DNA of 52,525 nucleotides from Oscillospiraceae bacterium (GTDB lineage Bacteria; Bacillota; Clostridia; Oscillospirales; Oscillospiraceae), in the NCBI GenBank assembly GCA_021205585.1, contig JAJPXI010000207.1, positions 1-52,525 of the forward strand, written 5' to 3'. The notes under the pieces were generated by a model, which saw only the letters and a list, made by a program, of their open reading frames with translations, made no database searches and was not told the DNA's origin. This document shows positions 16,422 through 51,800 of this stretch, in pieces. The translations under genes and the position numbers were made by a program. Within the stretch, counting starts at the first letter, position 1; every line of letters starts with the position of its first letter.

Positions 16422-17413
16422 GTGGCCGTACTGTTCTCTGCTACCGGTGCGGAGCAGAGTACTCTAAATATAAAGGATTATTCCCGGTGAGTTACGCCAA
16501 TCTGCACAAGGGCGTTGGTTATCTTCCATGGTGCAAGAAATGCGTGGAGGATTTGTACAATACCTATCTGGCGCAGAGCAACGACGCGAAGGCGGCGGCG
16601 CGACAGGTGTGCCGGAAGCTGGACCTGTTCTGGAGCGATGCGGTATATGACCGGCTGGAGAAGACTGCTTCCCCGGCCAGCATTATGACTCAGTACATGA
16701 GCAGGCTGTGTTCCACATCTCTGGCAGGAAAGAGCTATGACGATACGCTCGCCGCAGAAGGGACACTATGGTCTTTCACAGTGCCGGATGTGCCGCTGGA
16801 GGAATCGGAGCCGGAGACAGAGGTGGAGGAAGAGCCGGAGATTGAAGTACCGGAGGAGATCCGCCAGTTCTGGGGGCCGGGGTACGACTCGGCTATGTAT
16901 CTGGAGATGGAGGAGCGGCGGCAGTATTGGCTCTCCCGGATGTCCGGGACGGGCGAGTTGGACATTGGCACTGAGGCGCTGATTCGCCAAATCTGTCCGC
17001 TGGAGATCGACATCAACCGGGAACGGGCGGCTGGGCATCTATCCGAGGCCGGGAAGCTGGCGGGCAATCTGAACAACCTGCTCGGCAGTATGAATCTAAA
17101 ACCGGTTCAGCAGAAGGACGATGTGGACGCCGACCTGGAGAAGACGCCGCTGGGCGTTGGCATTGCTAAGTGGGAATACTACAGGCCGCTGCCTCAGACG
17201 CCGGACAACATGAAAGACCAGAGTGGCCTTGTGAAAACAGTGTTGACATTTTTTACCGGACACCTGTGCAAGATGGCCGGTGTGAAGGGATTCCACAGTC
17301 GGATGTATGACGAAGCTATGGAGCGGCTGCGGGTCAAGCGGCCAGACATCGACGAGGAGGACGACCGGGAATTCCAGGCCAAGTTCTTCGATTCTGGAGA
17401 CGACCCAAAATGA
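16406..17413 (+). CDS. Putative terminase small subunit / zinc-ribbon DNA-binding protein
   Basis: It sits immediately upstream of terL and is translationally coupled to it (ATGA). It has an N-terminal CYRCG...CKKC and an acidic linker. The function is assigned by position only. Confidence 0.45.
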   Translation: MSLEIGGRTVLCYRCGAEYSKYKGLFPVSYANLHKGVGYLPWCKKCVEDLYNTYLAQSNDAKAAARQVCRKLDLFWSDAVYDRLEKTASPASIMTQYMSRLCSTSLAGKSYDDTLAAEGTLWSFTVPDVPLEESEPETEVEEEPEIEVPEEIRQFWGPGYDSAMYLEMEERRQYWLSRMSGTGELDIGTEALIRQICPLEIDINRERAAGHLSEAGKLAGNLNNLLGSMNLKPVQQKDDVDADLEKTPLGVGIAKWEYYRPLPQTPDNMKDQSGLVKTVLTFFTGHLCKMAGVKGFHSRMYDEAMERLRVKRPDIDEEDDREFQAKFFDSGDDPK

Positions 17414-30527: not shown

Positions 30528-32020
30528 TTGGCAACTGATTCTTCGCAAATACAACTGGTTGTGGGCGTAGACCAGAGTGCGAGTTTAAAGAATTTTAAAG
30601 ATGGAGTCAATGCTCTAATTGCGGAGGTAAACAAAGACCCGCCCAAAATCAAGGTGGAAATCGACACTGGTTCTGCCAAGTCAATCAAATCACAAATTGA
30701 TTCTGCGCTGAAAACTGCCAGCTCCGGTGGCACCTCTCTTGGGACGCAGTTTAAGTCGGCGACGACGGAAGTCCAGAAGCTGGTATCCACGCTCGGCAGC
30801 CTGGATGATAAGAGTTTGGGGCAGCTAACGTCCACACTGAGCAGCTTTGAGAATATATCCGCCGATGGAGCGAAGCAACTTGTCGCAGCGCTAAGCAATG
30901 TTAGTGGTAAAGTGACTGATGTCACGGCCAAGGTGAGAACGCTTGCAGATGGAGAGCGGCAGCTTGACTCCGTCACAGTGAAGGCTGTGGATGATTTTGG
31001 CAACATAGTCACACAGACCTCTAAGTGGAACGCAAAAACAAAGGAAGTATCCAGCACATTAGAGACCGTACACGCGAAAATGGATGCGACCGCGAAGGCT
31101 CAGGAGACGGCGACTGCGGCTACGAGCAAAAATACGAATACGACTCAGCAGAATGTAGCAGTTGAGAAAAGTTATATCAGCGTGCTATCCAATTGCAATT
31201 CCTTTTTAGAGCGGTATACGGCGGCAAAGAACAGTCACAATTCAAGTAGTCGCGCTGCGTACACAACTGTCGAGCAGGAGAAATCTGCTATGGAGGCTGC
31301 GTACAGCGCATATAAAACCGGCGCTCTTTCTTTGGAAGCGTTCAAGAATGCGATCAATAACACATCGGTCAAGATAAGAGAAAATACAGTTTTACTAAAG
31401 GCGAATGGTGACGCAACGAAAACTCTGGTCGGGCGCGTATCTGATTTAGCTGCCAAATTTAGCTCGTGGTTCTCCGCATATACAATTGTAATCAATATGA
31501 TGAAAGCCATGAAGTCTTTGGCGTCTGCCTCTGTCGAGATCGAAGACGCAATGGCTCAGATCCAGATTGTCACCGGGGCGACGGACTCACAGTTGACCAA
31601 GTTTCTGTCCGAGGCTATCGACCTCGCCAAAGAGTTGGGACAGTCTGTGACCGATGTGGCCTCCGCGATCGAGACGTTCTCCCGTTTGGGCTACAGTTTC
31701 GATGAAGCGTCTGAGCTGGCTGAGTACGCCACGATTCTGGCAAACGTAGCCGATACGGATGTTGACACGGCTACGACAGGTCTGACTTCAATTATCAAAG
31801 GCTACAGTCTGGAGGCTTCTGACGCGGAGCATATCGCCGATGTGCTTGTCACAGTCGGTCAGGAGTACGCCATCTCTGCCGAAGAATTGATGGAAGCATT
31901 TGAGCGCGGCGGCGCTGCCTTAGCTGCAACTGGCGCGACAGTGGAACAGAGTGCTGGTTTGTTTGCGGCGACCAATGCTGCGTTGCAGGATGCTTCGACG
32001 ACTGGTACGATGTGGAAGAC
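30528..32020 (+). CDS. Tail tape-measure protein, exon 1
   Basis: TTG start after GGGAGGTGA. The sequence runs into the conserved TMP core, ending ...AATNAALQDASTTGTMWK(T). The track ORF continues only 7 more codons to TAG 32040. Confidence 0.8.
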
Positions 32021-32530
32021 AAACTACTGTCTTTGTGTATAGAAATATGCGCATAGAACATATTTAATTGCAGGTAACGCCTAAAGCCTTACACCACAAT
32101 AGTCGGGAAACCAGATTATGACGGGGCGAAAGCGGAAACAACGTAAGGATGGCATATGGCCAAAAGCCTAAGTGCCAAGTTTACTAATTTGTATAAATTA
32201 GAAATGGCTGTTCGTGCAGCGAAGCACCCTAACGTATCCCACAGACCATGTGGTACTTAGCCGAGGGTGAACGTTCAACGACTATCCCCCTGTCGGGGCG
32301 TAGAAATATCCGTCTTGGATTATCAAATAAGGGTGGAAATCCCGAATATCTGCGCCAATAGGAGTACGGCACAATCGCAAAGGTGTTGGTGAGAACCCAT
32401 TAAACGGAAAAGGTATGCTTGCTGCTTGTGAAAGCGTGAGTAAGAAATAGTCTCCTCTCCATGTGAAAGCATGGGTATTATGAAATTGATTCGTAGTAGA
32501 TGCGTGTTGCGAACGCATTTAAGATATATG
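32021..32530 (+). mobile_element. Group I intron 1a in the tape-measure gene (about 510 nt, no credible ORF)
   Basis: P1 is gaagac (32015-32020) with gtcttt (32029-32034). P10 is agta (32531-32534) with tact (32025-32028), adjacent. P-like aattgcagg at 32066, R-like cgttcaacgactatc at 32271-32285, S-like aagaaatagtc at 32442-32452. A P9-like hairpin ccatg-tgaaag-catgg and a hairpin atgcgt-gttgcga-acgcat follow, and the intron ends ...gatatatG. The 5' boundary has C rather than U at -1. Confidence 0.65.
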
Positions 32531-32552
32531 AGTAAGTGCAAGGATTCGGGGT
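32531..32552 (+). CDS. Tape-measure micro-exon (22 nt, completes the Thr codon then encodes VSARIRG)
   Basis: a|gta agt gca agg att cgg ggt supplies exactly the x-S-x-R-x-R-G segment missing between GTMWKT (exon 1) and ATTELDELGE (next exon). A TGA at 32529-32531 lies immediately upstream in the same frame. Confidence 0.6.
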
Positions 32553-32882
32553 CAACATAAATGTGCCCAGCAAACAGAAATGTTTGTACAGCCTCCTTGT
32601 AAAACAAAGGCTGCTCAATAACTATATAAGTCAAAACGCTGTGGGAAGCGCAAGACTTAGGAAAGACTGTGAATACAGAATCCTCAGAGACTGCGGGGTG
32701 TATGTGGCAACACATATGCTGAAGTTATTCTCCCTGCCTATTTTGGCGAGAGTGATATACAGTCCGATCTCACGATATAATCCCACATAATATGAAACGT
32801 GAGAGCTGGCCGGAAACGACCAGCCGCCATGCGAAATACATGGTCAGTAGTCGTGCTAATTCCGACGAAAGTAACAGTTATG
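32553..32882 (+). mobile_element. Group I-like intron 1b in the tape-measure gene (about 330 nt); 3' boundary uncertain
   Basis: P1 is gggT (32549-32552) with Gccc (32565-32568), giving U.G. A GAAA-capped hairpin caaaca-gaaa-tgtttg is present. P7-like pairing is gactgt (32665-32670) with acagtc (32759-32764), inside the S-like gatatacagtcc. 3' hairpins are ctcacg/cgtgag, gctgg..ccagc and ccatg..catgg. In-frame G-terminated 3' sites exist at 32831, 32864, 32867 and 32882. Protein consensus favours 32882 (RIRG|ATTELDE). Confidence 0.5.
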
Positions 32883-35800
32883 GCCACTACAGAATTAGAC
32901 GAGCTTGGCGAGTCCTCCGAGGATTGTGCTGACGGCATTTCTAAATATCGGGAAGAAGTCAAGGCTCTAACCGGCGTTGACATCATGATTGACGACAACA
33001 CCTACAGAGATGTCTATGACATTTTCGTTGATATTGCGAATGTTTGGAATGACCTGAGTGATACAGCACAGGCTCGTGTGTCCGAAATTTTGGGCGGCAC
33101 AAGGCAGCTCTCTGGTGTGTCCTCTACTATTACAAATATTGCGGACGCTATAGGCGCATATGAGAGCGCAATGGATTCCGCCGGGGCCGCAACTGAGGCC
33201 AACGACATCTACATGGAGACGACCACCGCTCATATTGCACAGCTGAACGCGGCGACGCAGGAGCTTGGCAGTGACCTGTTCAATCAAGATATGTTCAAGA
33301 CCTTTTTTGACGGTGCGACAAAAGCTATAGAAGCTATTGATGTTCTTGTTAGCCACATGGGAATGATCGGTACCGGAGGACTTGCCGGGCTTGCCGCAGG
33401 TTTCAAAAGTATATTTTCATCCGCCAGCAATTTTTCTAAACAATTGAGTGACGTTTCAAGCATAGCTAATAGCATCGGGACTGCTACTACATGGGCAGCT
33501 AATTATGCAGATGCTATCGAAGGATGCAACGACGCGACAAAGAACTTGCTGTTGTCAAGCGGCGGGTTGAGTACGCAACAGCAGACGCTTGTTCAAAATA
33601 TTTTAAAGGCGCGGACGGGCATATCCAACCTTACGGCCGCAGAGGTAATGGACGAGCTTACAAAGCAGGGGCTAATCACCGCCGAAGAGACAGAAACGGT
33701 GATGAAAGAACTCAACATTACTAAAACCCAAAAGCTAACAGAGTCTCAGCTTACTGCGGCGTATGCTTCCGGAACTCTAACAGAATCGCAGTACAATACC
33801 GCGATGGCGTTAGTCGCCGAGTCAACGGCGGCGGCCAAAGCCACAACTTCGACGACATCTTTTTCGACCGCGATTAAAGGCGCAATGGCGACTAACCCCG
33901 TCGGCTGGATTATGTTGATTGTCAGCACTTTGGTATCGCTATACAGTATTGTTAAAAATAATACGGATTTATTCAGTACCACGTCTGAAAGGTTAGAGAA
34001 GCTACAGTCCGATCTGGAAGAGCTGGAGGAGACCATTGACTCCGCCGCATCCTCTTTTAAAGAATTGCGGGAGACGTTAGAACTCGATTCTGACGCAACT
34101 GTCATTGACGAATTCGCGGAGCTTGCCAAAGGTGTTAATCAGTTTGGTGAAAATGTTGACCTAACAGAAGATGAGTATGAGAGATTTACGGAACTGCAAA
34201 GCACACTTGCCGAGTTATTCCCGTCCATAGACAACGGGTTAAACTCAAATGGAGAGCAGATGCTGGCACTGTCCTACTCTTCCGATACATTGGCCGAGTC
34301 GTTATATGCGTTGGCGGATGCGGAGCTTGCGGCGTATCAGCAAGAAATAGCTGATACCATGCCAGACCTTGTAAAAGACATCGCAAAAGAGACTAAGATA
34401 TACCAGAACCAATTGTCCGATTTGGAAGATCAGTATACCGTCTTGACCGCACTAAGTAGCGGGTATGCCAATTATTCAGACGTTGGTCGAATGATGCCAT
34501 ATCAAGATGTTGCTGACTTATTAGAATCGTATGGATTGTCGGCCTCTCAAGATATTTATGGGATGTCTGTTGATCTGAATACAGACGAGGCTCTGGCTGC
34601 ATATGAAAGTGCTTTGGCTACGCTCGAGCAGGAAATAAAGCAGGTAAACGACGAGGTAGCAGATGCTTGGACTGATTTAAACCCAGTTATTACATCGTGG
34701 CTTTCTACCGATTATACCTATAATGAGTTAAGTGACGAGATGCAGGATCTTCTCGCCTCTCTGATTGGAAATATTGATTTTTCGGAGCTTGGCTATGGCA
34801 CAGCAGATGACATCCAATCCTATATCAAGACCAATTTCTTAGTGCCAATTTATAACGCAAGTGATGAAGTACAGGAGGCTTGGAGCGATCTAATAGCGGT
34901 CGACACCTCTGATACCTCTTATTCCAAATTATACAACACAATTCACGAGTATGCTAATGTTGTAGCAGATGGCATTGGTCAAGACGTAGAGGATATTGTA
35001 TCTTCTCTGTACGGCGATACACTGGAAACGTACAATGATAAGATCATCGCTCTGACGGAGGAGTTCCAGGAGAGTTCGTTCTATGCGACCTCTGCGGCGG
35101 AGGATGCCGCTGAGAGTATGACCAGAGTATATAGCTTTTGGCTTAACAATCTGGAGGTTGGGGACCTCGACCTGGTGTATACTCTGTCCCTGCAAGAGGA
35201 CACCAGTGGCTGGACGTTACGGGATTGGCAGGATAATCTTGAGAAACTTCGTGAGTACACTGACGCGACCAACTTCACCATCGACATCGACGCGGAGACC
35301 GAGGGGCTTGAGGCTGTCAACACCGCTCTGGCTGAGACCGCATCGGCCACTGGTCTAACATCAGATTCTATTGAAACGCTCAAAGAGCGGTATCAGGACT
35401 TGGAGGACTTTGACGCAGACGCTCTGTTCGAGAACACGTCCTATGGTGTGCGGCTGAATACAACTGAGCTGAAGAAGCTGGAAGATGAGTATGAGGCCGT
35501 TATCAAAACCGGCTTTGATGAGAAGCTCGAAGAGCTGGCGGATGAGTATAACGAGGCCAAGAGCGAATTGTCCAGCTATCTGGGAGATGTGGACGCCTAC
35601 AACGAAAAGCTGTCCGAGCTGGACGCAATCGAGGCTCAGATTGAAGAGACTGAGATTCTCGCCTCCCAGTATGGAGCGCTGACCTCTGCGTATAACGAGT
35701 GGCAGAACGCCATGAATACCGACAACCAGCGGGATACCTATGAGTCCATCGGTGCAAGCTATGAGGATATGCAGGACATCCTGAACGCCGGGTGGTACAA

Positions 35801-37045
35801 TGATGATTCTTTACAGTCATACCTCGATCTGTTGCTCGGCGAGGAAAATCGCACTGGTGATGCCCTGAAGGATTTTGCTAAGCTCAGTGAGACCATCGCT
35901 GGGACAACGCACTCCATCATGGATTACTGGGCGTATGACGAGGACGGCAATCTGCTGTCCAACGGTCTGGTGGATTTTCTGGAAGATGTGCGCCAAGTCA
36001 TGGGCGAGGACTATGTTTGGCTTGACGAAGAAGGCAGTTATGTATTCGATCTGACGGGCGATAAGATACAGGAAGTCGCTGACCGGTTCGGTATGGGCAC
36101 GGAAGCCATTGAATATTTCATCACAGCCTTGGGGGATGTCAGCGGGACGGTTGCTCTTGAGGATATTAGTGATACGCTTGACCTAATTACGACCAGAGCT
36201 GAGGATGCGATTGCGACACTACAGGGCATTGAAGGGCTGACGGACTTTGAGTTCGATCTGAACACTTCGGACGTGGACGAACTCCAAGATGACCTGGCGG
36301 AAGCACAGCGGATTTACGACTCTATGTTGGATGAAAACGGCATTCTCAATTTGGATATAGAGGGTGCGGACGATGCATATGCTTTACCTTACGCTATCAA
36401 TCTTCAGATTCAGCAGATCGAGCAACCGGCCATTATGACCGTTGACACGTCGTCGTTCAAAGAGGGGTACGAGATTGTTGCGGACGCCGCCGCGAAGATT
36501 ATAGAATATGGCGAATTGGTAAGTCAGCTAAAGCTCTACGAATCTCTTGGTAAGGATACAACCGATATAGTCACGGATCTACAGGAGGTTTCCGCAGAGC
36601 TTTCTAATATCTCTAAAGACGCATATATCTCTCTCGGTCTTGATACAGAAACCATAGAGGAGATAAAGAGCATCACTTCTGAATGTTCTGTAGAGCTTGA
36701 TCAGGATAGCGTTGATGCCGTGATGGATATACTTGGCTCCATAGACGTTGACGATCTACCGCTTGAGTGCGATACCGATGCAGTCGAGGAAGCGTTTGAA
36801 TATTATGAGGAATATCAGTTTGGCGACAAAACTATCGTTGTGACGGTATCCGGCGGGGCGCTCAAAGACCTGCGGGTGATACAAAGCGTTGTAGACGATC
36901 TGTCCGGAGCAAGCATTGCGATAGGCACAGCATCGAATGCAGACGGTACTGCCCACGCCACTGGTACGGCCAAAGCCAGTGGGGATTGGAGCGTCGGGTC
37001 GAGCGGAGAGTCTCTGGGAGGAGAACTCGGACAAGAACTCGTGGT
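32883..37045 (+). CDS. Tail tape-measure protein, exon 3 (main body)
   Basis: In the frame of track ORF 32799..37067. ATTELDELGESSEDCADGISKYREEVKALTGVDIMIDDNTY...ILGGTRQ continues the TMP core, followed by long helical repeats. It ends ...GGELGQELV(V). Confidence 0.8.
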
Positions 37046-37369
37046 TTTGCGAAGCCACGCCGCTTAGTGATAAGCGGTTCATAATTTATTGAATTGCTGG
37101 AACACCCTTAGAGCCTTACCACCAAAACGGAGTAGCGAATAGCTACAAACGGCAATGGTTTGAAAACGGTAGGGATTGGGCAATCAGCAGCCAAGCCGCG
37201 AATAGCGGAAGGTTCAACGACTATCCCGCAAGGGAGTAGGGCCGCAAGCGATTGGCAGCTCGAAGCAGTAAATTACCTATTATATAGGTAAAAGATATAG
37301 TCTGAACTCATGTGAGAACATGAGGGGCGATGCCCTGTCCGGTGTAGCGAACCGGGCAAAACATAATTG
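37046..37369 (+). mobile_element. Group I intron 2 in the tape-measure gene (324 nt, ORF-less)
   Basis: P1 is cgtggT (37040-37045) with Gccacg (37054-37059). P10 is cgcaa (37371-37375) with ttgcg (37047-37051). P2 is cgctta-gtga-taagcg. P ttgaattgctgg at 37089-37100, Q gggcaatcagcagccaagc at 37178-37196, R ggttcaacgactatc at 37210-37224, S aaaagatatagtc at 37290-37302. It ends ...ataattG. The boundary is good to within a few nt. Confidence 0.85.
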
Positions 37370-37959
37370 ACGCAACGGCAGATGGTTCACCATCGGGGAC
37401 GACGCGGCAGAGTTCTTCCACCACGAACCAAATGACATTATATTCAACGCAGACCAGACTGAGCAGATCTTCAAGTACGGTAAGATAGTAAGTGGTCGCA
37501 AGAGAGGAACATCTTTCCTTACTGGCACTGCGTTTACTGGCGGCTCCGGCAGCGGAGTCAGCCCCTCTACGACCGCCACCGCCTCCACTGCCAAGACCAG
37601 CTCTTCTTCGAGCAGTTCATCCAGCAGTTCTTCTGACTCCGACGACGAGAATACAGAAGAGGTCATCGACTGGATTGAGATCGCAATCGACCGGATTGAG
37701 CGGGCGATCGACAATCTGGCTACCATAGCGGAGAGCGCGTATCACACGCTTGCCGAGCGGCTGAGCGCGACGAAGGACGAAATCTCCACAATCACAGAGG
37801 AGATTCAAGTTCAGCAGGCGGGCTATGACCGGTATATGCAAGAGGCCAACTCTGTCGGGTTGAGCAGTGACCTTGCGGCTAAGGTCATGGACGGCACCAT
37901 CGACATTGAGACGCTGGATGAGGATACCGCAGATTTAGTAAGCCAATTTCAAGAATGGT
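37370..37959 (+). CDS. Tail tape-measure protein, exon 4 (absent from the ORF track because it has no start codon)
   Basis: An open frame from 37371 encodes RNGRWFTIGDDAAEFFHHEPNDIIFNADQTEQIFKYG...poly-Ser...EEVIDWIEIAIDRIERAIDNL...DLVSQFQEW. A TGA lies immediately upstream at 37368-37370. Confidence 0.8.
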
Positions 37960-39361
37960 ATATTTTCATGCCGCTGTACCTGGAACTGGTACGGCTTTTC
38001 TACTGAATTGCTGGGACGCCCCAAAGGTGACTAAGCCAAAACGTGAGAATGAAAGATGTCTGAGCGTGACGGCGGCGAAAGCAGAAAAAATTAGGCACAT
38101 AGGATATGGCGAAAGCCTAAGTCCTTTACAACGGGCAATCAGCAGCCAAGCTCCGAATAGGAGAAGGTTCACAGACTATCGCTGAAATGCGAGTAGGGCC
38201 GCAAGCGATTGGCGGCTCGAAGTGGTAGATTACTTATAATTGCAATTTAGAAGCCAATGATAGGAGGTGAAATATGTTTGATGAAAATCAATTAGTTATG
38301 GTACGTTGGAATAATACAAATAAGGAATGGTACGAGTTGATGGGTTACAAATATACAAAACGATATGACCCCTTTTATGTAAAAGCAAAGCATCTTTCCT
38401 TACATTCTTCGGCGCAGATAGTTGTTGTGTGTGATTATTGTGGAAACGAATATAAAACACAGTATGCCTTAATTACAAACGGACGTCTACTTCTTAATAA
38501 GGATGCGTGCTCTAAGTGCGCGCCCACGAAGGCCAACGAGCTTAGATGGGCGAGAATGTCAAGAAAAAAGATGGGTGAAGCTCGGCGTATTTGTGATGAG
38601 TGCGGATATGAACTAATCTCTTCTGAAGATGATTATGCCGGAGCCACGGCCGCCATTCAATTTCGATGCCCGATACACGGTATCCAGACTATGAATCTTG
38701 ACAATCTTTTGAGAGGGCATAGGTGCAGAGATTGTGGCTATGATAGCGTTAGGGTAGCCTTAAAGCACAGTGGCGATTATGTCAAACAGGAAATCGAGAA
38801 GGTAAATGGCAATATACTACTAAACCCAGAAGATTATAAAGGGGCGTTTATCAACAATCTGCGTATTAGATGTAGGTGCGGAAATGTATTTACAACGGCG
38901 TTTTCCAGCTATACTAAGGCAGGGATAAATCGTTGTCATACATGTTCGTGCAAAGAGAGCAGTGGGGAATTAAAAATCAGGGAGTTTTTGGAGTCAAAAA
39001 ATATCACTTTCGTTCAGGAGAAAAGATTCAAAGATTGTTGTGATAAAAAGCCACTCCCGTTTGATTTTTATTTGCCAGACTATAACACTATTATTGAGTT
39101 TGATGGTCAGCATCATTATATGCCGGTACACGGAGAAGATCGCTACCTCGTGACAATAGCTCACGACCAAATAAAGAACCGATATTGTTGTGCCCACGAC
39201 ATTCATCTATTGCGTATTCCATATTGGGAAGGTAAACGTATGGAGGAAATTATCGCAAACGATCTAAAAATTGCAATATGAGTAAAAGATATAGTCGAAT
39301 CTCATGGGAAACCCATGAGGGTAAAAGCCCGTCGGGTGTAGCGCCCCGGCGAAATAAAATG
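37960..39361 (+). mobile_element. Group I intron 3 in the tape-measure gene (1402 nt) carrying a homing-endonuclease ORF
   Basis: P1 is tggT (37956-37959) with Gccg (37970-37973). P10 is atgaaaa (39362-39368) with ttttcat (37963-37969), 7 bp and contiguous with P1. The core is nearly identical to intron 2: P at 38003-38015, Q at 38133-38151, R ggttcacagactatc at 38166-38180, S aaaagatatagtc at 39284-39296. The last nucleotide is G at 39361. Confidence 0.9.
38274..39281 (+). CDS. Intron-encoded homing endonuclease candidate: zinc-ribbon repeats plus a C-terminal PD-(D/E)XK / Vsr-EDxHD-like nuclease
   Basis: ATG follows TAGGAGGTGA inside intron 3. It has three CxxC...CxxC-type modules, then GELKIREFLESKNITFVQEKRF...LPFDFYLPDYNTIIEFDGQHHY...DQIKNRYC...HLLRIPYWE. 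AT content is higher than in the flanks. Confidence 0.75.
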   Translation: MFDENQLVMVRWNNTNKEWYELMGYKYTKRYDPFYVKAKHLSLHSSAQIVVVCDYCGNEYKTQYALITNGRLLLNKDACSKCAPTKANELRWARMSRKKMGEARRICDECGYELISSEDDYAGATAAIQFRCPIHGIQTMNLDNLLRGHRCRDCGYDSVRVALKHSGDYVKQEIEKVNGNILLNPEDYKGAFINNLRIRCRCGNVFTTAFSSYTKAGINRCHTCSCKESSGELKIREFLESKNITFVQEKRFKDCCDKKPLPFDFYLPDYNTIIEFDGQHHYMPVHGEDRYLVTIAHDQIKNRYCCAHDIHLLRIPYWEGKRMEEIIANDLKIAI

Positions 39362-41640
39362 ATGAAAAGGCCCTCGACTGCTCCGACGCAATTCTTGAGC
39401 TGAAAGAAAATCTAGCCGACCTGTACTCTGAGCAGTTCACTCTCATCGAAGAGGACTACGAGAACCAGCTCGCCCTGTTGGAGCACCTGACCACCACATA
39501 CGACAACGCCATCACCGATACAGAGACCCGTGGGTATCTGGTGAGCAAGGAATACTACAAGGCGCTGACGGAGGTAGAACAGGAGAGTATCGCCGTGATG
39601 GAGAGCGAGTTGGACAGCTTGCAGTCTGCTCTGGCTGAAGCTCTGGACTCCGGGACAATCTCCATGTACAGTTCCGAATGGTATGATATGCAGGAGTCCA
39701 TCAACGCGGTCACGGAGTCCATTCAGGAGGCCACCACGTCCCTCGTGGAGTATGCCAACGCTATGCGGGAGTTGGATTGGGATTACTTTGACTATGTTGA
39801 AGACCAGATCAGCAACCTGACCAGTGAGGCCGACTTCCTGATCGACCTGATGTCCAATACAGATCTGTACACCGATAACGGCCAGCTGACCGATACCGGT
39901 ATTTCCACTATGGGTCTACACGCCCAGAACTACGATACCTATATGTACCAGGCCGACGACTATGCTGAGCAGATCGAGGAGTTGAACGAGGCGATCGCAG
40001 ACGATCCGTTCAACACGGATTTGCTGGAACGCAGGCAAGAGCTGCTTGAGTTACAGCAGGAATCCATTCTGGCTGCCGAGGAAGAGAAACAGGCCATTGT
40101 GGATATGGTTGAGGAAGGCATTGAGCTGGAGCTGAGCGCCCTTCAAGATCTTATAGATCAATACGAAAATTCTTTAGACTCAGCAAAAGATTTATATGAC
40201 TACCAAAAGTCAATCTCTGACCAAACTTCCGAAATTGCAAGTTTGCAGAAACAACTTTCCGCGTATTCGACCGGCAACGATACTTCCGAAGAAACACGAG
40301 CAACGGTTCAGAAACTACAAGTCAGCCTGGAAGAAGCCGAGACCGAGCTGGCCGAGATGCAATACGAGCAGTTTATTAGCGACACTAAGCAAATGCTCGA
40401 CAACCTGTACGACGAGTATGAGCTGATTTTGAATCAGCGGCTGGATGACATTGACTTACTAATCAGCGATATGATTACCGCTGTAAACGCCAATGCTATT
40501 ACAATTAACGACACCTTGCTAAGCCAGTCGGAAGCTGTTGGATATACGATGTCCACCGAGATGTCTAATATTTGGCAGACGGCCTCGGACGCTTTGCGAG
40601 AGCTTTTTAGCGAACTTGGTATCGACATTGAGAACGCTACGACTCTTAACACAGACAAGATGCAAGAGCTTCTTGATAGTCTCGGAATTGATATTGATGA
40701 CGCGACTTTATCCGTAGGAGATATGGTCAAACTGTATCAAGCAGCTGTGGAGCAAAACGGGAAAGATTACACTACAGCTGTGACGACATACGGACCGGAT
40801 TTCTCCGACAAACAGACGACGACTAATCAAACGCTGGACAGCATCAAGGCGTATGTAGCGGCTATGCAGCAAGCGTCCGACACGACAGCCGCTGCTACTG
40901 TCAGTGAAACTAAATCGTCTTCCAGCAGTTCCACATCCTCTTCTTCCAGCTCGTCCAGCTCCTCTTCCACGAAGTCAAGCAGCAACAGCTCTGGCGGCGA
41001 CGGGGTTGTGGCGGTTGGCGACAAGGTGACATTCAAGAGCGGCAAGTATTATACCGACTCCTATGGTACATCGCCGACTGGGTCTAAGTATCTCGGTGAG
41101 AGCGTATATGTGACGAAGGTTGTGTCCAGTCCGAAGTCTGGGCAGAACTACCCGATTCATATCAGCACCGGGAACAAGCTCGGCAATGGCGACTTAGGCT
41201 GGATTAAGAAGGATCAGATTACCGGGTACAAGACCGGCGGTCTGGTAGATTACACCGGCCTTGCTCAGCTGGACGGCACGCCGCAGGAACCGGAGCTTGT
41301 TCTGAATGCAACCGATACGGCGAACTTTATTGCGCTAAAGGACGCTATGGCTGATGTTGCGAACGGTAACACGCTGACGGCTCTCTTTGGAGACAGCGCG
41401 GCGGAAAATCTGCTGGAGCAGCTTACAACAATCGGTATGCCGCTGAGTGTGGAATCCGCCGGTATCACGCAGGACATCAATTGCACGATGAATGTGGCGA
41501 TCGACCATGTGGAAGACTATAACTCGCTGGTCAACCAAATGGTGAAAGATCCGCAGTTCGAGAAATTTGTGCAAGCTATGACGGTAGACCAAGCTGTTGG
41601 TGGGAGTAAACTGGCAAAGAACAAATATAAATGGGGATAA
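39362..41640 (+). CDS. Tail tape-measure protein, exon 5 (C-terminal part with poly-Ser linker and SH3b-like segment)
   Basis: It joins as tgg t|at gaa aag (W-Y-E-K) in the frame of track ORF 39478..41640. It contains helical repeats, a Ser-run at about 40915-40992, and GDKVTFKSGKYYTDSYG...GWIKKDQITGY. Confidence 0.8.
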
Positions 41641-42018: not shown

Positions 42019-42804
42019 TTGTATGCTTATGACTTTGAATATGACGGCGTAACTCTGAGCGACCTTGGGTATACGCTTTGTAAATTTGACTCCAGCGGAG
42101 AGGAAACCGTGACCAACGGGTCGCAGATTACATTTAATACAGTATCGACTTTAAGGGGCGCGAAATATGAGCTTACCAGTTCGGAGTATAGCGAGTGTAT
42201 CACCACAACATTCCAGATGTGTAAAGACTTGTGTGCTTTCGACGATTTGGAAATTTCCGTATCTGAAATGCGAGAGCTGATGAGCTGGCTGAACCGGAAG
42301 CGGTTTCATAAATTCAAACTGCTGGACGAGAATAATGAGTATTCCAGTTTTTACTTTGAGGGCAGTTTTAATATTAGCCGGATTGAGATGGACGATAAAG
42401 TTGTTGGGCTGGAGCTGACGTTGATCACCAACCGCCCGTTCGCACTTTTGGAGCCTGTCACTGTGACGATTTCAACGAGCGGGTCGTTTGAGGACGTATC
42501 GGACGAGGAAGGGTTTATTTACCCGGAGACCACGATTACTTTGAAAGCAAGCGGAAACCTGACGATTTATAATGTAGAGGAAGACAGGACGACATATATT
42601 GCGAACTGTACGTCCGGGGAAGTTATTACGATGAACTATCCGGTTATCTCCTCTTCTCTTTCGTCCCATGAAATCCAGAACGACTTTAACTGGAATTTCT
42701 TGAGGGTTGCAAATACATATGAGGAACACACAAACACAATCAGCTCTTCTCTAAGTTGTACGATTGTGATGACATATTCACCTGTTGTTAAGATTGGCCT
42801 GTAA
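42019..42804 (+). CDS. Distal tail protein (Dit / siphovirus tail component)
   Basis: TTG start after GAAGGAGGTG. 261 aa; MYAYDFEYDGVTLSDLGY...FYFEGSFNISRIEMDDKVVGLELTLITNRPFA is typical of Dit N-domains. It lies directly after the TMP gene. Confidence 0.75.
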   Translation: MYAYDFEYDGVTLSDLGYTLCKFDSSGEETVTNGSQITFNTVSTLRGAKYELTSSEYSECITTTFQMCKDLCAFDDLEISVSEMRELMSWLNRKRFHKFKLLDENNEYSSFYFEGSFNISRIEMDDKVVGLELTLITNRPFALLEPVTVTISTSGSFEDVSDEEGFIYPETTITLKASGNLTIYNVEEDRTTYIANCTSGEVITMNYPVISSSLSSHEIQNDFNWNFLRVANTYEEHTNTISSSLSCTIVMTYSPVVKIGL

Positions 42805-42815
42805 GGAGGGATAGC

Positions 42816-45800
42816 ATGGCAATCAAAATCAAGTTTGATGCGGCGGGAAATCCTGAGCCTCCTATCCTTGTCCTTGCCACTAGAAGTGGGGATAAGTTCG
42901 GACAGATCCCCGCCGGGTCCATTAACATTGCTGATTATCAGAACGAGCCGTCTGAGATTCAGTTCCAGGTTCACAAGTATGACAGTGATGGCGAGCTGGT
43001 TCCGCTTTGGGATGAGCTTGTCAATTTCCGGCTGGTATGGTGCCAGGAGTGGGACGTGTGGTTTGAAGCCACGGTCAGTCTGGACGAGGATACCGAGACA
43101 GTCAAGACAGTCAACTGTACGAGACTCGGACAGGCAGAACTGTCTCAGATTATGCTCTATGATATTGAAATCAATACCGAGGACGATATCGCCAGAGACG
43201 ACTATGAACGGGCTACGGTCTTTTATAGCACCGCATATCCAGAAGCGTCTCTGCTGGACCGTATTATGGAGAAAGCGCCGCATTACAGCATTGCCCATGT
43301 GGACGATACGCTTGTAAATATTCAACGCACATTTTCTTTCGATGGGACTTCCCTGTATGATGCGTTCCAGGAAATTGCTACGGAGATTGGTTGCCTGTTT
43401 GTCTTCGACTCCGAGTCTGATGATGATGGCAAACCGAACCGGACGATTTCTGTATATGACCTGGAGTCCACTTGTGCGTCCTGCGGCTATCGTGGTGAGT
43501 TTACCACAACCTGCCCTGAGTGCGGCGGCACGACGATCAACGAGGGGTATGGCGAGGACACCACTATTTTCGTTACGGCGGACGCGCTGGGCAGTAACAT
43601 CCAGTTCACTACGGACACGGACAGCGTAAAGAACTGCTTCCGGCTTGTAGGCGGCGACGACTTGATGACCGCCACGATCCGCAACTGCAACCCAAACGGG
43701 ACAAGCTATATCTGGTATCTGACCGACGACATGAAAACAGATATGTCGGACGAGCTGGTCACAAAGCTGGACAAATACGACGAACTCTATGCGTATTATA
43801 AGGACGAGTATGTGGCCAACATTTCTTCCAGTGTTATAACAGAGTACAACGAACTGGTCAAAAAATATCAGACGTACAACAGCGATCTGGAGACTCTAGA
43901 TACGTCAATTGTTGGATACGCGGCGCTGATGAACGCCTACTACAACGCGATTGATTTAGAGCTTTATCTCCAGTCAACATTGATGCCGGATGTAACGACG
44001 AGCGAGTCCGACGCCAGTGAACAGGCTGCCTTGCTGACAGCAAGCAACCTCTCCCCTGTTGCGGTCGCAAGTATTGATAGCGTGTCTACAGCCACGGCAA
44101 CCAGTGCGGTTCTGGCCATGGCGAAGGCTATTGTTAGCTCCAAATATCAGGTTAAAGTAAATGACGGGGCTACTCTGTCTGGCACCGCCTGGACTGGCTC
44201 GTTTACCGTCACGAACTATTCAGACGATGAGGACACCGCAACAAGCAGCACTATATCTGTTACGGTTACAGACGACTACGAGGAATATCTCTTACAGCTC
44301 ATTGAGAAAGAACTGAGCGCCGACGACACAGACGATGTGAGCATCACCGGATTGTTTGCATACGACATCGACGACTTTGAGGAAAAGCTGAAGCTTTATT
44401 GTCTCGATAGTCTTACCTCCTTCCACGATTCTTGTCAGGCTTGTTTGGATATTTTGATTGAGCAGGGCGTTGGCAACGCAGACACCTGGGCGGGTGAAGA
44501 CCCGAACCTGTATGATGACCTGTACGCGCCATACTACGAAAAGCTCATGGCTATCGAGAATGAGATGGCACTGCGGGAAGAGGAGATTGAGTTAATCACC
44601 GGCGTCTATGACTCCGACGGCAATCTTGAAACCGGCGGTGTGCAGACATATATCGAAGCTGAGCGGGATGCGATTCAGGAGGCTCTGGACTTCGAGACCT
44701 ATGTTGGCGAAGACTTGTGGCTGGAATTTTGTGCTTATCGCCGGGAAGATGAGTACAACAACAGCAACTATATTTCTGATGGGCTGGATAATGCTGAGCT
44801 ATTTGAGCGAGCACTAGAGTTTATTGAGGTTGCGGAAAATGAAATTTATAAGTCTGCTGAGCTTCAGCACTCTATCTCCGCAACGCTGAAGAATTTGCTC
44901 ATCATCAACGGGTTCGAGGCGCTTGTAGACTATTTTGAGATTGGAAATTGGCTACGCATCCGGGTTGACGACGACGTTTATAAGTTGCGGTTGATTGGGT
45001 ATGGAATTGATTACGACAATCTTGATGAAATCACGGTTGAGTTTTCGGATGTCGTGAAAACTGCAACTGGAGTTTCTGATATGGAGTCGATTCTTAGTCA
45101 GGCTTCTTCTATGGCTACGTCCTACAGCGCAACACAACAGCAGGCCAGCCAAGGTAGTTCGGCCAGTTCCGTTGTTTCTGGCTGGCGTACCAACGGGTTA
45201 GATGTGACCAATACTAAGATTATAAGCGGCGCGGATAATCAGTCTCAGACATGGGACTCTCACGGGATGTTGTTCCGCAAATACGACCCGCTGACTGATA
45301 GCTATGAGGCAGAGCAGTCCAAAATTGTAAACTCTACTTATGCTATCACGGATGACAACTGGAAAACGATTCGGACCGCTATCGGAAGATTCTATTATGT
45401 CGATCCGACGACCGGAGAACTGACCAGCGCATACGGTGTTAACGGTGAGGTGCTGGTCGGCAATCTGATTCTGGGCGAATCGCTTGGCATTTATACCGCC
45501 GACGGGTCCATGACGTTTGATGCAAATGGATTGACTATTGACACCTCAAGCGGCGTCGCTTTTACGATTACGAACAACGGCAACACACAGTTCTACATCG
45601 ACGCCAATGGTAATGTTGTGTTGGATAATGGCGCGTCTCTCGTGTGGGGGAACATCGACCTGACGGATCTTATTTTGAACGCCGATAATGTGGTCTCAAC
45701 TGACGATGATGGCAACACCGTAACATTCCAGTCGTATCTTCAGACCAAGTATCTGAACGCCCAGTATATTACCTCTGAGTGTATCGACACTCAGTATTTG

Positions 45801-48800
45801 AACGCAGATGTAGTAGATGCTTACCTTGCCAATATCGTGAATCTGAATGCAGAAAATTTGTCTACGAATTACCTGAGCGCGGCGATTGCAGATATTGCAA
45901 AGGCCAACATCACTGATCTTGTGGCAGAAAATATCACCGCTGATTACATCGCGACGCTCTTGTTGGAAGCCGATACTGCGAGCGTAAACGATCTTTATGC
46001 AAAGGTAATTGAGGCCGAGACCGCTAATATTCAGACTATTACATCGGAGAGTATTACATCTGATTATATCGCAACGCGGCTTTTGGAAGCAGAGTCGGCC
46101 ACTGTTGATGAGTTGTTTGCAAAGGTAATTGACGTCGAGTCGGCCACAATCGAAGAGCTCGCCGCTGGGACGATTACAGCTGATACCGTATCCACTGCAT
46201 TGTTGACCGCCGACACAGCCGTAGTTGATGAATTGTATGCAGAAATCATCAGCGCTCAGAGCGCGACAATCGAAGAGCTTGCCGCCGGAACAATTACGGC
46301 CGATAATATTTCTACTGCTCTGTTAGAAGCCGATACCGCCGTAGTCGAAGAGTTATACGCCAGCATTATCGAGGCCGAGAGTGCTACGATTACAGACCTT
46401 GTCGCCGGAACGATTACGTCGGACGTAGTTGCCACAGCGTTGCTTGAGGCTGATGTGGCCGAAGTCAAAGAACTTTACGCTAAAATTATTGAAGCGGAGA
46501 CTGCTACAATTGAGAACATAGTTTCTACTAATATTGATGCAGAGTATATTTCCTCGACATTGATTGAAGCCCAAACACTGGAGGCGGAACAGGCATATGT
46601 TGAGGAGTTGTACGCGAGTATTATCTCCGCAACAGAAGCGCAGATCAACACAATTATTTCCGGGCAGGTAACATCCGATTATGTGTTGACTACACTTTTG
46701 GACGCCGAGTCTGCGACGATCAATGACTTATACGCCGCTGTTATCGAAGCGGAAAGTGCGACTATCCAAGAGCTTGCTGCTACAACAATTACCGCAGAAA
46801 ATATTTCTACAGCGTTGCTTGCGGCGGACGAGGCAACTGTTGGCGAGCTGTACGCGACCATTATCGAAGCCGAGTCCGCAACAATTCAAACTCTTACCAC
46901 AGAAGTAATCGACACGGCTTACATTGCGGCCGAGATATTAGAGGCTGACTCGGCTACAATTGGCGAACTTCAGGCTACCCTTATCACCTCCGAGTATATC
47001 ACATCGAATATCGTAACAGCTGACTATATCAACACAGCTGTATTGGATGCGGAATCTGCCACGATTAACTATCTGACTTCTGAATATATCTCCACAGTAC
47101 TGCTGGACTCCGAGTCTGCAATGATTGGTTATTTGGAGACAAACTATATAGAAGCTGGAACGATTGACGCGGACTATATCACTACGACACTACTTGTGGC
47201 TTCCGAGGCCAATGTTGCCGACTTGCAGGCATTGATTGTAACATCTGCATATGTTTCTTCTGCCCTGCTCGCGGCGGATGCCGCGTCTATCGCTGAGTTG
47301 CAGGCAGTGTTTGTCACGGCTGGTACGGTAACAACCGCCATCTTAAACGCCTCCGAAGCGAATATTGCAGATTTACAGGCCGCTCTTATTACAGTTGGGT
47401 ACATTGATGCGTTGTTCGTAGATGTAGACGAAGCAGATATAACCAACCTGCGTGCGGCTCTTGTGTCGGCGAGCTATATCGCCACTACTCTTTTAGAGGC
47501 AGATTCTGCAAACATTGCGGAATTGCAGGTACTGTTTGTGACCGCAGATGTCATTACCTCTGTGATGCTGAGTGCAGACGAGGCTTATATTGCTGACCTA
47601 CAAGCGGCGCTGGTTACGGCTGACTATATTGACACACTGTTGCTCAATTCTGGAACCGCTACATTCGGCGAGCTTTATTCAACGGTTGCAAACATTGAGT
47701 CTGTTCTTGCTGGCAATATTGGTGCAGGAAGTTTGACGACCGTACATTTGACCAGCGATAATGTGGTAGTTGACGACGCAGTTATTACATCTGCCATGAT
47801 AGCCAGCGTGACGGCAGATAAGATTACGTCTGGCACTATTTATACCACTCGGGTTAAGATTCAAACTGCCGAAGACGATGCCAGCCTTGTCATCGCAGAC
47901 GGCACCATTCAAATCAGTGATGGGACTTATGTCCGGGTACAGATTGGTGAGGACGCATCCGGCGACTACAATTTGTATCTGTGGAACTCAGAAGGTACGT
48001 TAATCTGGAACGCCGAAGGTTTAACCGAGGAAGGACTCGGCGGCAATGGCGCAATTATTAAGGATTTGAATGTTGCTGATGATGCGGCGATTTCCGGCTC
48101 GAAGTTGGATATACAGAGTGTGGCAAGCGCACTTAATAAGGATGGTAGTCTTGTCGTAGACGCGGCAAGCGTGACAATTGATAACACTACACTTAGCGCG
48201 GCTTACACATCAATTATCCAGCAGTTGGATGATTATGAATCAAGTCTTTCCGATCTTGAGTCCAATAGTGTTGCCAATATTGTTACCTATTATGCTATCG
48301 GTACATCTTCTACTGAATCTCCTGGCGATCCAGACCTGCAACGAGCGGCGGCCTATACCGACACTGCCATGACAGACGAGTCGCAGACTGACTTGGTAGA
48401 TGTCATCTCTGGCGTGTGGACGACCGAGCAATTAACTGCTGGTGAAGATGAATATCTGTGGATTTGTTACAAACAGGAAATGCTGGACGGCAGCGTTAAT
48501 TGGACAACACCGTTCTGTATCACGGATTCCTATGTTCGTTCTCAAACTACTACTTTAGTTACGGAACTGACCGTGATCCAAGGGCAAATCTCGTCTTTCG
48601 TCAGTGTAGATACATTGACAGAAACCGTCGATTCTATTGGGGATACTATCACGGAAGTACAGAGCCAATATTCCAGCCTTGTTGAAACGGTCGATGGTAT
48701 CACCGAAACCGTGATTGATCTCACTACAACTGTCGGCGATAACTACACCGAGCTATCTGATAAGTATACCACTATTGAGACGACTGTAAGTGGCATCACC

Positions 48801-51800
48801 GAAACCGTAGCTGACTTGAGTACAACGGTCGGCGATAATTATACCGAACTATCTGACAAGTATACGACAATTGAGACGACTGTAAACGGGATTACTACCA
48901 CAATTAGCGACCTGGAAGCTACTATTGATACCGTGAGCGGAAATTATACTACGCTTTCAGAACAGTACACTACGATTGAGGCGACCGTCGAAGGTATTAC
49001 GACTACTGTTGCGAGCCTAACTTCCACAGTGGATAGCTTGAGTAGTACTGTAACGAGTGTATCGGTAACGCTTGACGGCATTTCTGCAAGCGTGTCTTCG
49101 ATCGAAAGCACGGTGTCCAATCTTACATCTACCGCCGCTACAGAGGTTGTTGCCTATTATGCGATTGGCAGTTCCGATACTAAGTCTCCGGGTGATCCGG
49201 ATACGCAGAGGGCCGCTGCTTACACTGATACGGCAATTACGGATGATTCGCAGACCGACCTGGTAGATGTCCTCTCTGGTGTATGGTACACAGATGCACC
49301 GTCTACAACCGAAGATTGCCCGTATTTGTGGGTGGCCTATCGCACCGTAACGGTTGATGGTACTGTCAGCTGGTCCGAGCCGACTTGTATTACCGATTCT
49401 AATATTCTGTCGCAAACCACAACGTTGGTTACAGAACTGACTGTAATTCAAGGAGAGATTTCGACGCTGGTTAGTGAAGAAACATTCACCGAAGCCATCA
49501 ATAGCTTGGGCGAAACAATCACAACGGTATCCGATAATTATTCTTTCTTGACGGAAACGGTTAGCTCGATTGAATCTGAGGTCGGCACGTTGACCACGAC
49601 AGTTTCTGATAACTATACAGAGCTGACTAATTACTACAGCAGCATTAGACAGGACGTTGATACTATCACCTCTACCGTTGCCGAGATAGAAACAACGGTT
49701 TATGGCGAGGATGGCGAGAGCGGGTTAAGCGGAACCGTAACTACGCTTACCGAAAACTACAGCGAGATTGAGCAAACGGTTAGTAGTGTCTCGTCTACCA
49801 TTATAGAATTAGAGACGACCATTTATGGCGAGGATGGTGAGAGCGGGCTTGTATCAACGGTTTCTTCCAACTACAGCGAAGTTATCCAACTGATTGATAG
49901 TGTCACTACTACCATTGCGAGCCTGACGACTACCGTTGACGACCTGGAAGATGACTACACCACGATAAGCAATACTATTGCTTCTCAGTCTATCACACTC
50001 GACAGCATTACCACCAGCGTCTCCACGATCGAAAGTACGGTATCTGGTATTACGTCTACCGCCGCCACGGAAGTTACCGCTTATTATGCTATCGGCAGTT
50101 CTGCGACCGTATCGCCTGGCGACCCAGATACACAGCGGACGGCGGCCTATACCGATACCGCCGTAACTGATGATTCGCAGACCGATCTGGTTAATGTCAT
50201 CTCTGGTGTGTGGTATACGGATGCTCCAGATACAACAGAAGATTGCCCGTATTTATGGGTCGCCTATAAGACTGTAACAATAGACGGTGAGATCAGTTGG
50301 TCTGAGCCAACCTGTATATCTGATGCTTATTTAATCAGCAGCGTGTCGGATATGGGGTCCAGTATCACTCAGACCGAGGAGTTTATTGAAAACAAGGTTT
50401 GGGAATCTTATACCGAAACTTATGTTGGTAAAATCCTCTACGGTGAAGACGGCGACAGTGGCGTATATGCCGAACTTACTGGAGAGATTACAACTCTGTC
50501 CAGTAAGTATAGCACTCTTACGCAGACCGTTGGTGATATTTCTTCTACCGTAACCTCTCTGTCTTCTACGGTATCGAGCAATTATACCACTCTGTATGAG
50601 TATTATAGCACGGTCGACCAGAGAGTCGACAGTGTAGTGTCGAGCGTGTCCGCGCTATCAACTACTGTCAGCGATAATTACTCCGCACTGTCGTCTCAGT
50701 ATTCCGAAATCTCGCAGACTGTTGACTCTATCAGCTCAAGCGTATCCAGTTTGACCACGACAGTTAGCGATAACTATTCCACCCTGTCTTCGCAAATCTC
50801 TTCTCTCACCATATCTCTGGATAGCATCACTACTTCTGTCACTTCGATTCAAAGCGAGATTGAAGGGTTTGAGGCGGGCCTGACGGATGTCACGCCGTAC
50901 TTTGCCAGCTTTGCAGACGATACAGATCCGAGCGACCCAGCATTGTGCGTTGCGGCCGCTTACACCGATACGGCAAAGACCGATGAATCTTTAGTTGGCA
51001 TCACCGCAGTCAATAGCGACTGGAGCGAGAACTGCCCGGATGCCGCAGATGGATACACGATTTGGGTTTCCTTCCGGCAGGTCTCCGCTGATGGTACCGT
51101 ATCGTGGACTACACCGGTGACTTATGCTTCTGCCGGATATGTTAGCTCTAAAATCGAGCAATTGGCAGACAGCATTACCTTGTCTGTCACTGGTGGCCTT
51201 GGCAGCACGGCATCTATTGTGCTGTCTGTGGACGGCACAGAGACTGCGATCGACAGTGTAGATTTGTCTGCGGTGCGGACAGCGTTTGCGAACGATACCA
51301 CCGCTATTACAGTCTCCGCCGGAACAATTACGTTCTCCAGCAATACCCTTGTAATTGACAGCACCTACTTTGATGTGACTGCTGCCGGTGTTATTACCGC
51401 AACAAGCGGAACTATTGGTGCTATTACTCTGTCGAGTACGGGCATCCACAGCTATAATTCCAGCGTGAGTGGAAGTTACACAGGATGGTATAGACCGAGT
51501 ACAATCGCCTCGTCTACCATTGCCTTCTTTGCTGGCGCAACCAGCGCGACCGGAACAAGCGCAACCTTCAAGGTGACTTACGGTGGTGCATTGACTGCGA
51601 CCGGGGTCGATATTAGTGGTACGATTACTGCTACTGATGGCACAATTGGCGCACTGACACTGAGTAGTACCGGGATTTATAGCTATAACTCCGGCGTCTC
51701 TGGCTCTTATGCAGGCTGGTATAAGCCGAGTACTATTCTTTCGACCAGCACGGCGTTCTTTGCTGGAGCGACTGACGCGACCGGGACCGGTGCTACATTT

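Follow-up and report, generated by a model that had tools for sequence, protein, structure and literature searches.

Two group I introns of a giant phage tape-measure gene are probably independent residents from one large intron family

The 52,525-nucleotide (nt) stretch of contig JAJPXI010000207.1 analyzed here (the window) includes a giant phage tail tape-measure gene, split into four exons by three group I introns recognized through Rfam (Table 1). Introns 2 and 3 were first described, from the sequence alone, as close paralogues, one with a homing endonuclease gene and one without. Set among their relatives, the two are most likely family-level homologues and not a recent duplicate pair. 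The boundaries first proposed for them stand, because the reading frame is continuous across both, P1 forms with a U.G wobble at the 5' splice site (U37045.G37054 in intron 2, U37959.G37970 in intron 3), and each intron ends in G (G37369 and G39361). The spliced frame is free of stops across both junctions (...GGELGQELVV/RNGRWFTIGD... and ...LVSQFQEW/YEKALDCSD..., a slash here and below marking the junction), and tape-measure homologues begin or end precisely at these junctions or continue through them. The two insertion sites, called sB (intron 2) and s3 (intron 3), are different and lie as far apart as claimed, exon 3 being exactly 590 nt long; sB falls in GELGxELVV, the most conserved protein motif, upstream of s3.

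Intron 2 has no open reading frame (ORF) and matches Rfam family RF00028 with 77.5 bits over 37036-37324, above the curated gathering score of 50 bits that serves as the membership threshold. Intron 3 matches in two pieces (5', 42.3 bits; 3', 22.1 bits) with its ORF between them, each piece below the same threshold. The family alignment retains every helix of intron 2. Its P8 is the short hairpin that was said to replace the ORF, and the ORF of intron 3 does sit in the P8 loop, flanked by the two P8 strands, with its stop codon inside the 3' strand. The P8 stem of intron 2 (UUACCUAU/AUAGGUAA) is the same as in the ORF-bearing s3 introns of two related loci, L125 and L126. Intron 2 is without the P5 extension that intron 3 carries, a feature present in some family members and not in others, independent of site; in intron 3 it includes a module that by its sequence we take to be a putative 11-nt GAAA-tetraloop receptor. 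The P9 loop reads GAGA in intron 2 (37307-37324) and GAAA in most relatives.

The proposed secondary structure fits the family well. In an alignment of 11 introns, 93.9% of cells are paired, against 35-41% in controls with slid partners, and 54 of 85 pairs show compensatory changes on both sides. The P1 helix covaries, with U.G at the splice site in 9 of the 11 introns; P7 is 100% paired and shows one compensatory change (U-A to C-G, in L135). Hairpins P7.1 and P7.2 are found in both window introns, P7.2 covarying at 6 of its 7 pairs, and their placement between P7 and P3' is a hallmark of subgroup IA (PMC3984707). Both introns are predicted to be self-splicing.

Table 1. Features of the tape-measure gene and its introns in the window, followed by intron sites in related tape-measure genes (spliced amino-acid coordinates counted from exon 2; handles such as L124 denote related loci).
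Feature	Position	Strand	Remarks
Giant tail tape-measure gene, 4 exons	30528..41640	+	placed by frame continuity, PhageMin_Tail and homologue ends
Tape-measure exons	~30528-32021, ~32856-37045, 37370-37959, 39362-41640	+	
Intron 1, more distant group I intron	32022..32855, approximate	+	RF00028 36.3 bits; alignment gap against uninterrupted L124 homologue
Intron 2, IA2-type group I, no ORF	37046..37369 (324 nt)	+	site sB, after ...ELVV, codon phase 2
P1 of intron 2	37040..37059	+	exon CGUGGU pairs with internal guide GCCACG (37054-37059)
P7.2 hairpin block of intron 2, gagtagggccgcaagcgattggcagctcgaag	37234..37265	+	segment closest to intron 3
P8 of intron 2, minimal hairpin UUACCUAU-UAU-AUAGGUAA	37273..37291	+	between P3' and J8/7
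Exon 3	37370..37959 (590 nt)	+	frame continuity; uninterrupted in P0001 and P0004/L127 (no intron at either site)
Intron 3, IA2-type group I, ORF in P8 loop	37960..39361 (1402 nt)	+	site s3, after ...QEW, codon phase 1
UAUGG-CGAAAG-CCUAAG module, P5 extension of intron 3	38105..38121	+	read from sequence
P7.2 hairpin block of intron 3	38191..38222	+	
Extended P8 of intron 3, 5' strand	38230..38248	+	complementary to 39268-39285
Shine-Dalgarno AGGAGG	38262..38267	+	6 nt 5' of endonuclease ATG
Predicted homing endonuclease, 335 aa	38274..39281	+	N-terminal CxxC zinc-ribbon repeats, C-terminal EDxHD/Vsr-like nuclease domain
P8 of intron 3, 3' strand	39268..39285	+	overlaps last codons and TGA stop of ORF
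Site sA'	5' of first GAACTCG of GELGxELVV motif		ORF: L149; ORF-less: none
Site sA	after GELGR		ORF: L124, L136, L147; ORF-less: L135; empty: window
Site sB	11 nt 3' of sA		ORF: L154, L143; ORF-less: window intron 2; empty: most others
Site sC	~aa 1437		ORF: none; ORF-less: L130
Site sD	~aa 1443		ORF: L128; ORF-less: none
Site s3	aa 1612		ORF: window intron 3, L125, L126, L130, L131-134, L142; ORF-less: L148, L155; empty: L124, L127, L128
Site sF	aa 1889		ORF: L127; ORF-less: none

A global pairwise alignment of introns 2 and 3 shows 237 of 306 positions identical (z = 23.6 against shuffles). The blocks first listed as shared are all present in both introns, one 12-mer matching at 11 of 12 positions in intron 3; they comprise tgaattgctgg (intron 3 starts ctgaattgctgg), then gggcaatcagcagccaagc, ggttcaNNgactatc and gagtagggccgcaagcgattggcNgctcgaag, and finally aaaagatatagtc followed by a ctcatg..catgag hairpin. 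Block gagtagggccgcaagcgattggcNgctcgaag, in P7.2, is identical at 31 of 32 positions. The likeness is not limited to the generic P/Q/R/S core, because it extends into P2, P7.1, P7.2, P9 and the terminal P9.x hairpin with its GUAGCG loop. One part of the original prediction, that the guide sequences are unrelated, proves wrong, because both guides begin GCC (GCCACG in intron 2, GCCG in intron 3); both pair with exons ending ...TGGT. The exon junctions are alike at 11 of 15 positions (GTGGT/ACGCAACGGC and ATGGT/ATGAAAAGGC), a score reached by only 2 of the 7033 positions of the spliced gene in a test whose window length was picked after the data were seen. Intron-less junctions read ...TTTCAAGAATGGTATGAAAAGGCCCTC... 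at s3 and ...GAACTCGTGGTACGCAACGGCAGA... at sB.

The claim of close paralogy holds as far as homology beyond the core is concerned, but not as to closeness. The family is large: a BLAST search for distant matches with the region finds introns in 145 phage records, and viral contigs contain more than 120 exact copies of the block GGGCAATCAGCAGCCAAGC. When five segments of intron 2 are fitted to 123 phage loci, intron 3 ranks 148th, 66th and 30th of 247 for three of them, and comes first only for P7.1-P7.2 and J8/7-P9, by a small margin; in four of the five, some other intron equals or exceeds the match of intron 3. In multiple alignments of 16 introns the window pair is 62-65% identical (about 72% in the core), in a family that spans 55-86%. 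When the pair is set against 14 other tape-measure introns, intron 2 aligns best with L154_sB, an intron at its own site (score 350, vs 314 with intron 3, rank 4 of 15), and intron 3 with the s3 introns of L125 (384), L130 (360) and L131 (329), intron 2 being at rank 5 of 15. By these scores the own-site introns of other phages include, for each window intron, relatives no more distant than its partner in the window. Recent duplicates should be mutual closest relatives at about 80% identity or more, and the window pair is neither. Neighbor-joining places intron 3 with L125_s3 in 42-76% of bootstraps, and introns 2 and 3 as sisters in 2-32%.

A protein search with the spliced region yields 155 tape-measure homologues, from metagenomes; 15 of their contigs were fetched, and a further 20 loci were added through a DNA pattern. 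Among these relatives the intron family occupies at least eight positions of this tape-measure family (Table 1), the eighth being that of intron 1. Site s3 is the most commonly occupied and sB is rarer; both are uninterrupted in L127, P0001 and P0004. Empty, ORF-bearing and ORF-less states all occur at sA, sB and s3. Because all three states are found at the same sites in relatives, the homing cycle can be followed at the level of the population but not in the window pair. The idea of a snapshot of that cycle, with an ORF lost or gained, thus survives in that intron 2 has a P8 of the s3 type without the ORF, but no such step is visible within this pair. Similarly, the proposed spread of introns within one gene is borne out for the family, which has spread among sites of the gene family, but not for introns 2 and 3, given how seldom they group as sisters. 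Sites sA', sA and sB are packed within 23 nt (window 37020-37050), in the GELGxELVV codons, which hold a direct repeat, GAACTCG; the step from sA' to sA is one repeat unit, 12 nt.

Site- or endonuclease-linked signal is confined to the P1 and P8 arms of these introns. In intron 2 the P8 arm alone is s3-like and the ribozyme body is not. A placement of intron 2 in the s3 clade, seen at 77% bootstrap with purine/pyrimidine coding, drops to 0% without the P1 and P8 columns, and we have discarded it. The ORF-less L135_sA (6742-7147) and the ORF-bearing L130_s3 (8584-10046), which come from different samples, have an identity of 77-80% and a long P5 extension in common, and are closer than most same-site pairs, a sign that ribozyme bodies move or recombine between sites. 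L154 is itself a mosaic, with an s3-like P1 joined to an sA-like P8 and endonuclease. The 3' tail of intron 2, AAAACAUAAUUG, was considered as an sA-specific mark and rejected, the same tail being found in the s3 introns of L142, L148 and L155. Exact-pattern scans for an ORF-less s3-type P8 and for the P1 of intron 2 gave zero matches.

The intron 3 ORF is apparently intact. Its 335-aa product belongs to PHROG 559 (E = 1e-57) and has matches in 480 phage records; its homologues number over 600 and include more than 120 clusters at 45-59% identity, nearly all of them about 332 aa long. The class of the endonuclease is placed by fold comparison alone, because sequence searches gave no useful match (none among PDB sequences, including 3r3p, and nothing useful in NCBIfam or Pfam). 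An AlphaFold model based on 38 homologues has a predicted local distance difference test score (pLDDT) of 91.5, and Foldseek aligns its C-terminal domain with the catalytic domain of I-Bth0305I (3r3p_B) at a target template-modeling (TM) score of 0.73 over 105 columns, with root-mean-square deviation 3.1 and probability 1.0, though the E-value is only 0.027. Residues E232, D264, E275, D277, H281, H297 and D298 are invariant in the 38 homologues, as is K301. Among these candidate catalytic residues, D264-H281 has along the sequence the same spacing as D196-H213 in I-Bth0305I. The N-terminal two-thirds consist of repeated CxxC units, with faint Pfam matches to CapR, DUF723 and DUF4379 and no match to NUMOD.

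I-Bth0305I is the prototype EDxHD homing endonuclease (Taylor et al. 2011; PMC3239194), and like the enzyme predicted here it is coded in a phage group I intron and combines a Vsr-like C-terminal domain with a 17-residue Asp-His spacing. Unlike it, with its NUMOD/helix-turn-helix (HTH) part and its ORF in P5, the intron 3 enzyme has a zinc-ribbon CxxC N-terminus and its ORF in P8. The missing NUMOD/HTH is a trait of the prototype, not of the nuclease family.

Endonuclease identity is 41-57% within s3, 40-65% within sA/sA'/sB, and 32-43% between the two groups. The intron 3 enzyme falls in the s3 clade, which leads us to expect action on empty s3 sites; both its activity and its specificity for s3 are predictions from sequence. 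Elsewhere, sB introns (L154, L143) carry an enzyme of the sA/sB clade, which is absent from the window. Because the endonuclease clades follow the site, intron 2 is not simply intron 3 minus its ORF. Across the family, the endonuclease clades go with the site and the ribozyme bodies do not. The endonuclease frames at sA, sB and sD (L124 9933, L128 9932, L136 2022, and L154 at about nt 1500-1525 of the reverse-complemented locus) cross the P8 3' strand and J8/7 into P7, and therefore protein-coding and catalytic-core RNA sequence overlap; the C-termini of these enzymes read ...HKDIV or ...HEDIV.

We think it probable that introns 2 and 3 came to reside here independently, as members of one large IA2-type phage intron family. 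The family has spread over many positions of the giant tape-measure gene in these apparently SPbeta-like phages. The intron 3 enzyme would cut intron-less s3 alleles of co-infecting relatives, and double-strand-break repair would then copy intron 3 into the cut site. Intron 2, with no endonuclease, would be harmless through self-splicing and unable to home alone. Two leading options, both in line with the data, may explain how intron 2 reached sB. In one, an s3-type intron inserted ectopically at the look-alike target TGGT/A.G.AA.GG; in the other, the intron homed in the ordinary way from a phage with an intron at sB, and its ORF-bearing P8 arm was later lost or replaced. Reverse splicing and relaxed endonuclease specificity are counted among the unproven routes to ectopic integration (PMC3984707). 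The data do not call for a recent copying between sites in this gene, although one may have occurred. An intron at sB would also disrupt the sA' and sA endonuclease targets 11-23 nt away, which could help an ORF-less intron persist.

Several observations weigh against independent residence. The phylogeny of the ribozyme body is almost unresolved. Close relatives of the phage were not found: the best tape-measure identity is about 50-60%, protein-pattern scans of viral or genome contigs, aimed at near relatives of the tape-measure region, gave zero matches, and tblastn of that region against phage records gave one weak match only. Because the best relative is so distant, gain or loss in the phage's own lineage cannot be dated. 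The P7.2 form shared by the window pair is found nowhere else, and a 23-mer from this block has zero exact matches in 2.9 million viral contigs; the P7.2 loop itself, CAAGCGAUUGG, is common to L001, L002, L099 and all tape-measure introns. The window pair also tops the count of exclusive shared derived bases, with 6. The P7.2 identity and these derived bases hint that the two introns are specially related or have undergone gene conversion. Convergence is also a plausible cause of the shared bases, because 5 of the 6 are AT to GC changes in introns that are GC-richer (48% GC, vs 30-43% in relatives), and the step from the consensus P7.2 stem GGAUUGC/GCAAUCC to GGGCCGC/GCGGC.C needs transitions only.

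A broader scenario, which we put forward tentatively, joins several of these elements. One family would move between look-alike sites and swap modules (P1/P2, body, P8 with endonuclease) as it goes; intron 2 would be an s3-type intron that jumped or reverse-spliced into the second-best s3 target, gene conversion would partly homogenize co-resident introns, and sB would have been colonized at least twice independently. If so, the P7.2 form would be identical in the two introns and unique to the window because of conversion between co-residents, and sB would have been gained once with an s3-type P8 (the window) and once with an sA-type P8 and endonuclease (L154).

It is doubtful that the intron was copied between s3 and sB, in either direction, within the phage lineage and then lost or gained its ORF, in which case the two would be each other's closest relatives. 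Such copying would account for the unique P7.2 form with its 31 of 32 matches, the s3-type P8 stem of intron 2, the junctions alike at 11 of 15 positions, the GCC start of both guides, the leading count of 6 exclusive derived bases, and a sister grouping that reaches 22-32% of bootstraps in some analyses. However, an identity of 62-65% sits inside the family background, both introns score better with an own-site partner in another phage, and intron 3 prefers L125_s3 in 42-76% of bootstraps. Moreover, P1-P2 (9 of 38 positions) and the P5 region (14 of 40) of the window introns are among the least similar of all pairs, and the excess of AT to GC changes (5 of the 6 derived bases) is what shared GC pressure would give.

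We consider it improbable that intron 2 homed to sB from a phage with an sA/sB-type endonuclease, had its P8 arm lost or replaced, and was then homogenized with intron 3 over P7.2-P8 by gene conversion. The sB introns with an sA/sB-clade endonuclease (L154, L143) show that suitable donors exist, no intron scores higher with intron 2 than L154_sB does, and bodies, P8 arms and P1 arms are shuffled in the family, as in the L135_sA/L130_s3 pair at 77-80% identity and the L154 mosaic. The co-resident introns of L130 also share a P7.2 variant, CAAGCTATTGG, at 27 of 28 positions. But the P8 of intron 2 bears no sign of L154's GUGUAAA-type stem, the L130 variant is nearly shared by another phage, L131 (25-26 of 28), and the unrelated pair L136_sA/L125_s3 also matches at 27 of 28 in P7.2. 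In view of these cases, a P7.2 form shared by co-resident introns says little in favor of conversion. The wider proposal of concerted evolution of co-resident introns, drawn from the identical P7.2 in the window and L130 pairs, is weakened by the equal likeness of L136_sA and L125_s3 and by the GC pressure that could produce the window form. That the likeness of introns 2 and 3 is only generic group I consensus (P, Q, R, S) is scarcely credible: P4/P6 GGGCAAUCAGCAGCCAAGC, P7 GACUAUC and J8/7 AAGAUAUAGUC are indeed conserved core found in hundreds of phage introns, but the same architecture runs through P2, P7.1, P7.2, P8, P9 and P9.x, and this homology beyond the core, with the pairwise z of 23.6, refutes it.

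Related group I introns at different sites of one phage gene have direct precedents. Tourasse and Kolsto (2008) described such introns in the tape-measure gene of Bacillus cereus-group prophages, at three positions (TMP-IVS1, IVS2, IVS3a/b). TMP-IVS1 and IVS2 are closely related IA2 introns, each with a P1 fitted to its own site; their identity is 80% overall and 90-92% in the core. Site IVS3 is used by two different introns (PMC2504315). The present system is like theirs in having several group I introns at different tape-measure positions, related IA2 introns at two sites with P1 fitted to each, different introns at one site, a patchy spread, and ORF-less copies. Unlike IVS1 and IVS2, the window pair is only 62-65% identical with a core at about 72%; the intron family is spread here over at least eight sites, in a different and much larger tape-measure family, and the endonucleases are Vsr-like (EDxHD-type) with zinc ribbons. 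Staphylococcus phage Twort is reported to have three group I introns in orf142, introns 2 and 3 being highly similar IA2 introns separated by a 23-nt exon, with exon skipping (Landthaler and Shub 1999, as summarized in PMC10136302). The window pair differs in its 590-nt exon and in being no closer than the family background.

In Thomasclavelia phage TR-TP1 (PQ571309) a tape-measure gene is split by an intron of the same family, whose ORF is annotated "DUF2726/HNH." Its P7.2, GTAGGGTCACAAGCGATTGGTGGCTCGAAG, matches at 27 of 32 positions, and its endonuclease is related (23-27% identity). Unlike TR-TP1, where the ORF lies 3' of P7' in the P9 region, the window has its ORF in P8, and the two also differ in tape-measure protein and insertion site. 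The family also enters a different gene in Enterocloster phage CB457P2 (L001, OP172754, 2957-4340): P7.1 there equals that of intron 2, the P7.2 loop reads CAAGCGATTGG, and an I-TevI-like endonuclease lies 3' of P9; the record does not annotate the intron.

The window pair is an ordinary and rather diverged one, of a kind known since 2008. The wider set is more useful, with its many sites, three states at three of them, endonuclease clades arranged by site, and mosaic ribozymes. It offers good natural material for the long-standing question of the routes by which group I introns come to occupy ectopic sites, and for asking whether endonuclease cassettes move separately from ribozymes. For annotation, the region is best described as one tape-measure gene of about 2,850 codons, rather than four ORFs and an "HNH endonuclease."

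Exon 1 of that gene matches Pfam PhageMin_Tail (PF10145). Intron 1, also of group I, is longer and lacks an intact ORF; the P3-P5 half, with a UAUGG/CCUAAG module, is like that of intron 3, and the 3' half differs. The phage structural module of the window also includes a terminase-like ORF (17410-19248) and a DUF6558 tail protein (42019-42804). A 483-aa ORF at 8882-10333 matches Pfam RdRP (PF05183) at 34.7 bits, which exceeds the cut-off, and may be a YonO-like phage RNA polymerase. This match, with a weak YomN-like match in the relative L125, suggests that the phage is SPbeta-like. Just 3' of the tail genes a giant gene lies on the plus strand: 43602-52525 is free of stops for 2974 codons, and the frame leaves the end of the window. 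The first 1000 residues of its product are without a Pfam match. In several relatives (L124 1-12, L125 2316-3362, L126 1-122) a tyrosine recombinase (Phage_integrase) gene lies directly 5' of the tape-measure gene, an unusual place for it. L126 also holds, at 6873-7184, a partial second copy of the sB region (aa 1378-1478, 52% identity), about 4.3 kb 5' of the main copy.

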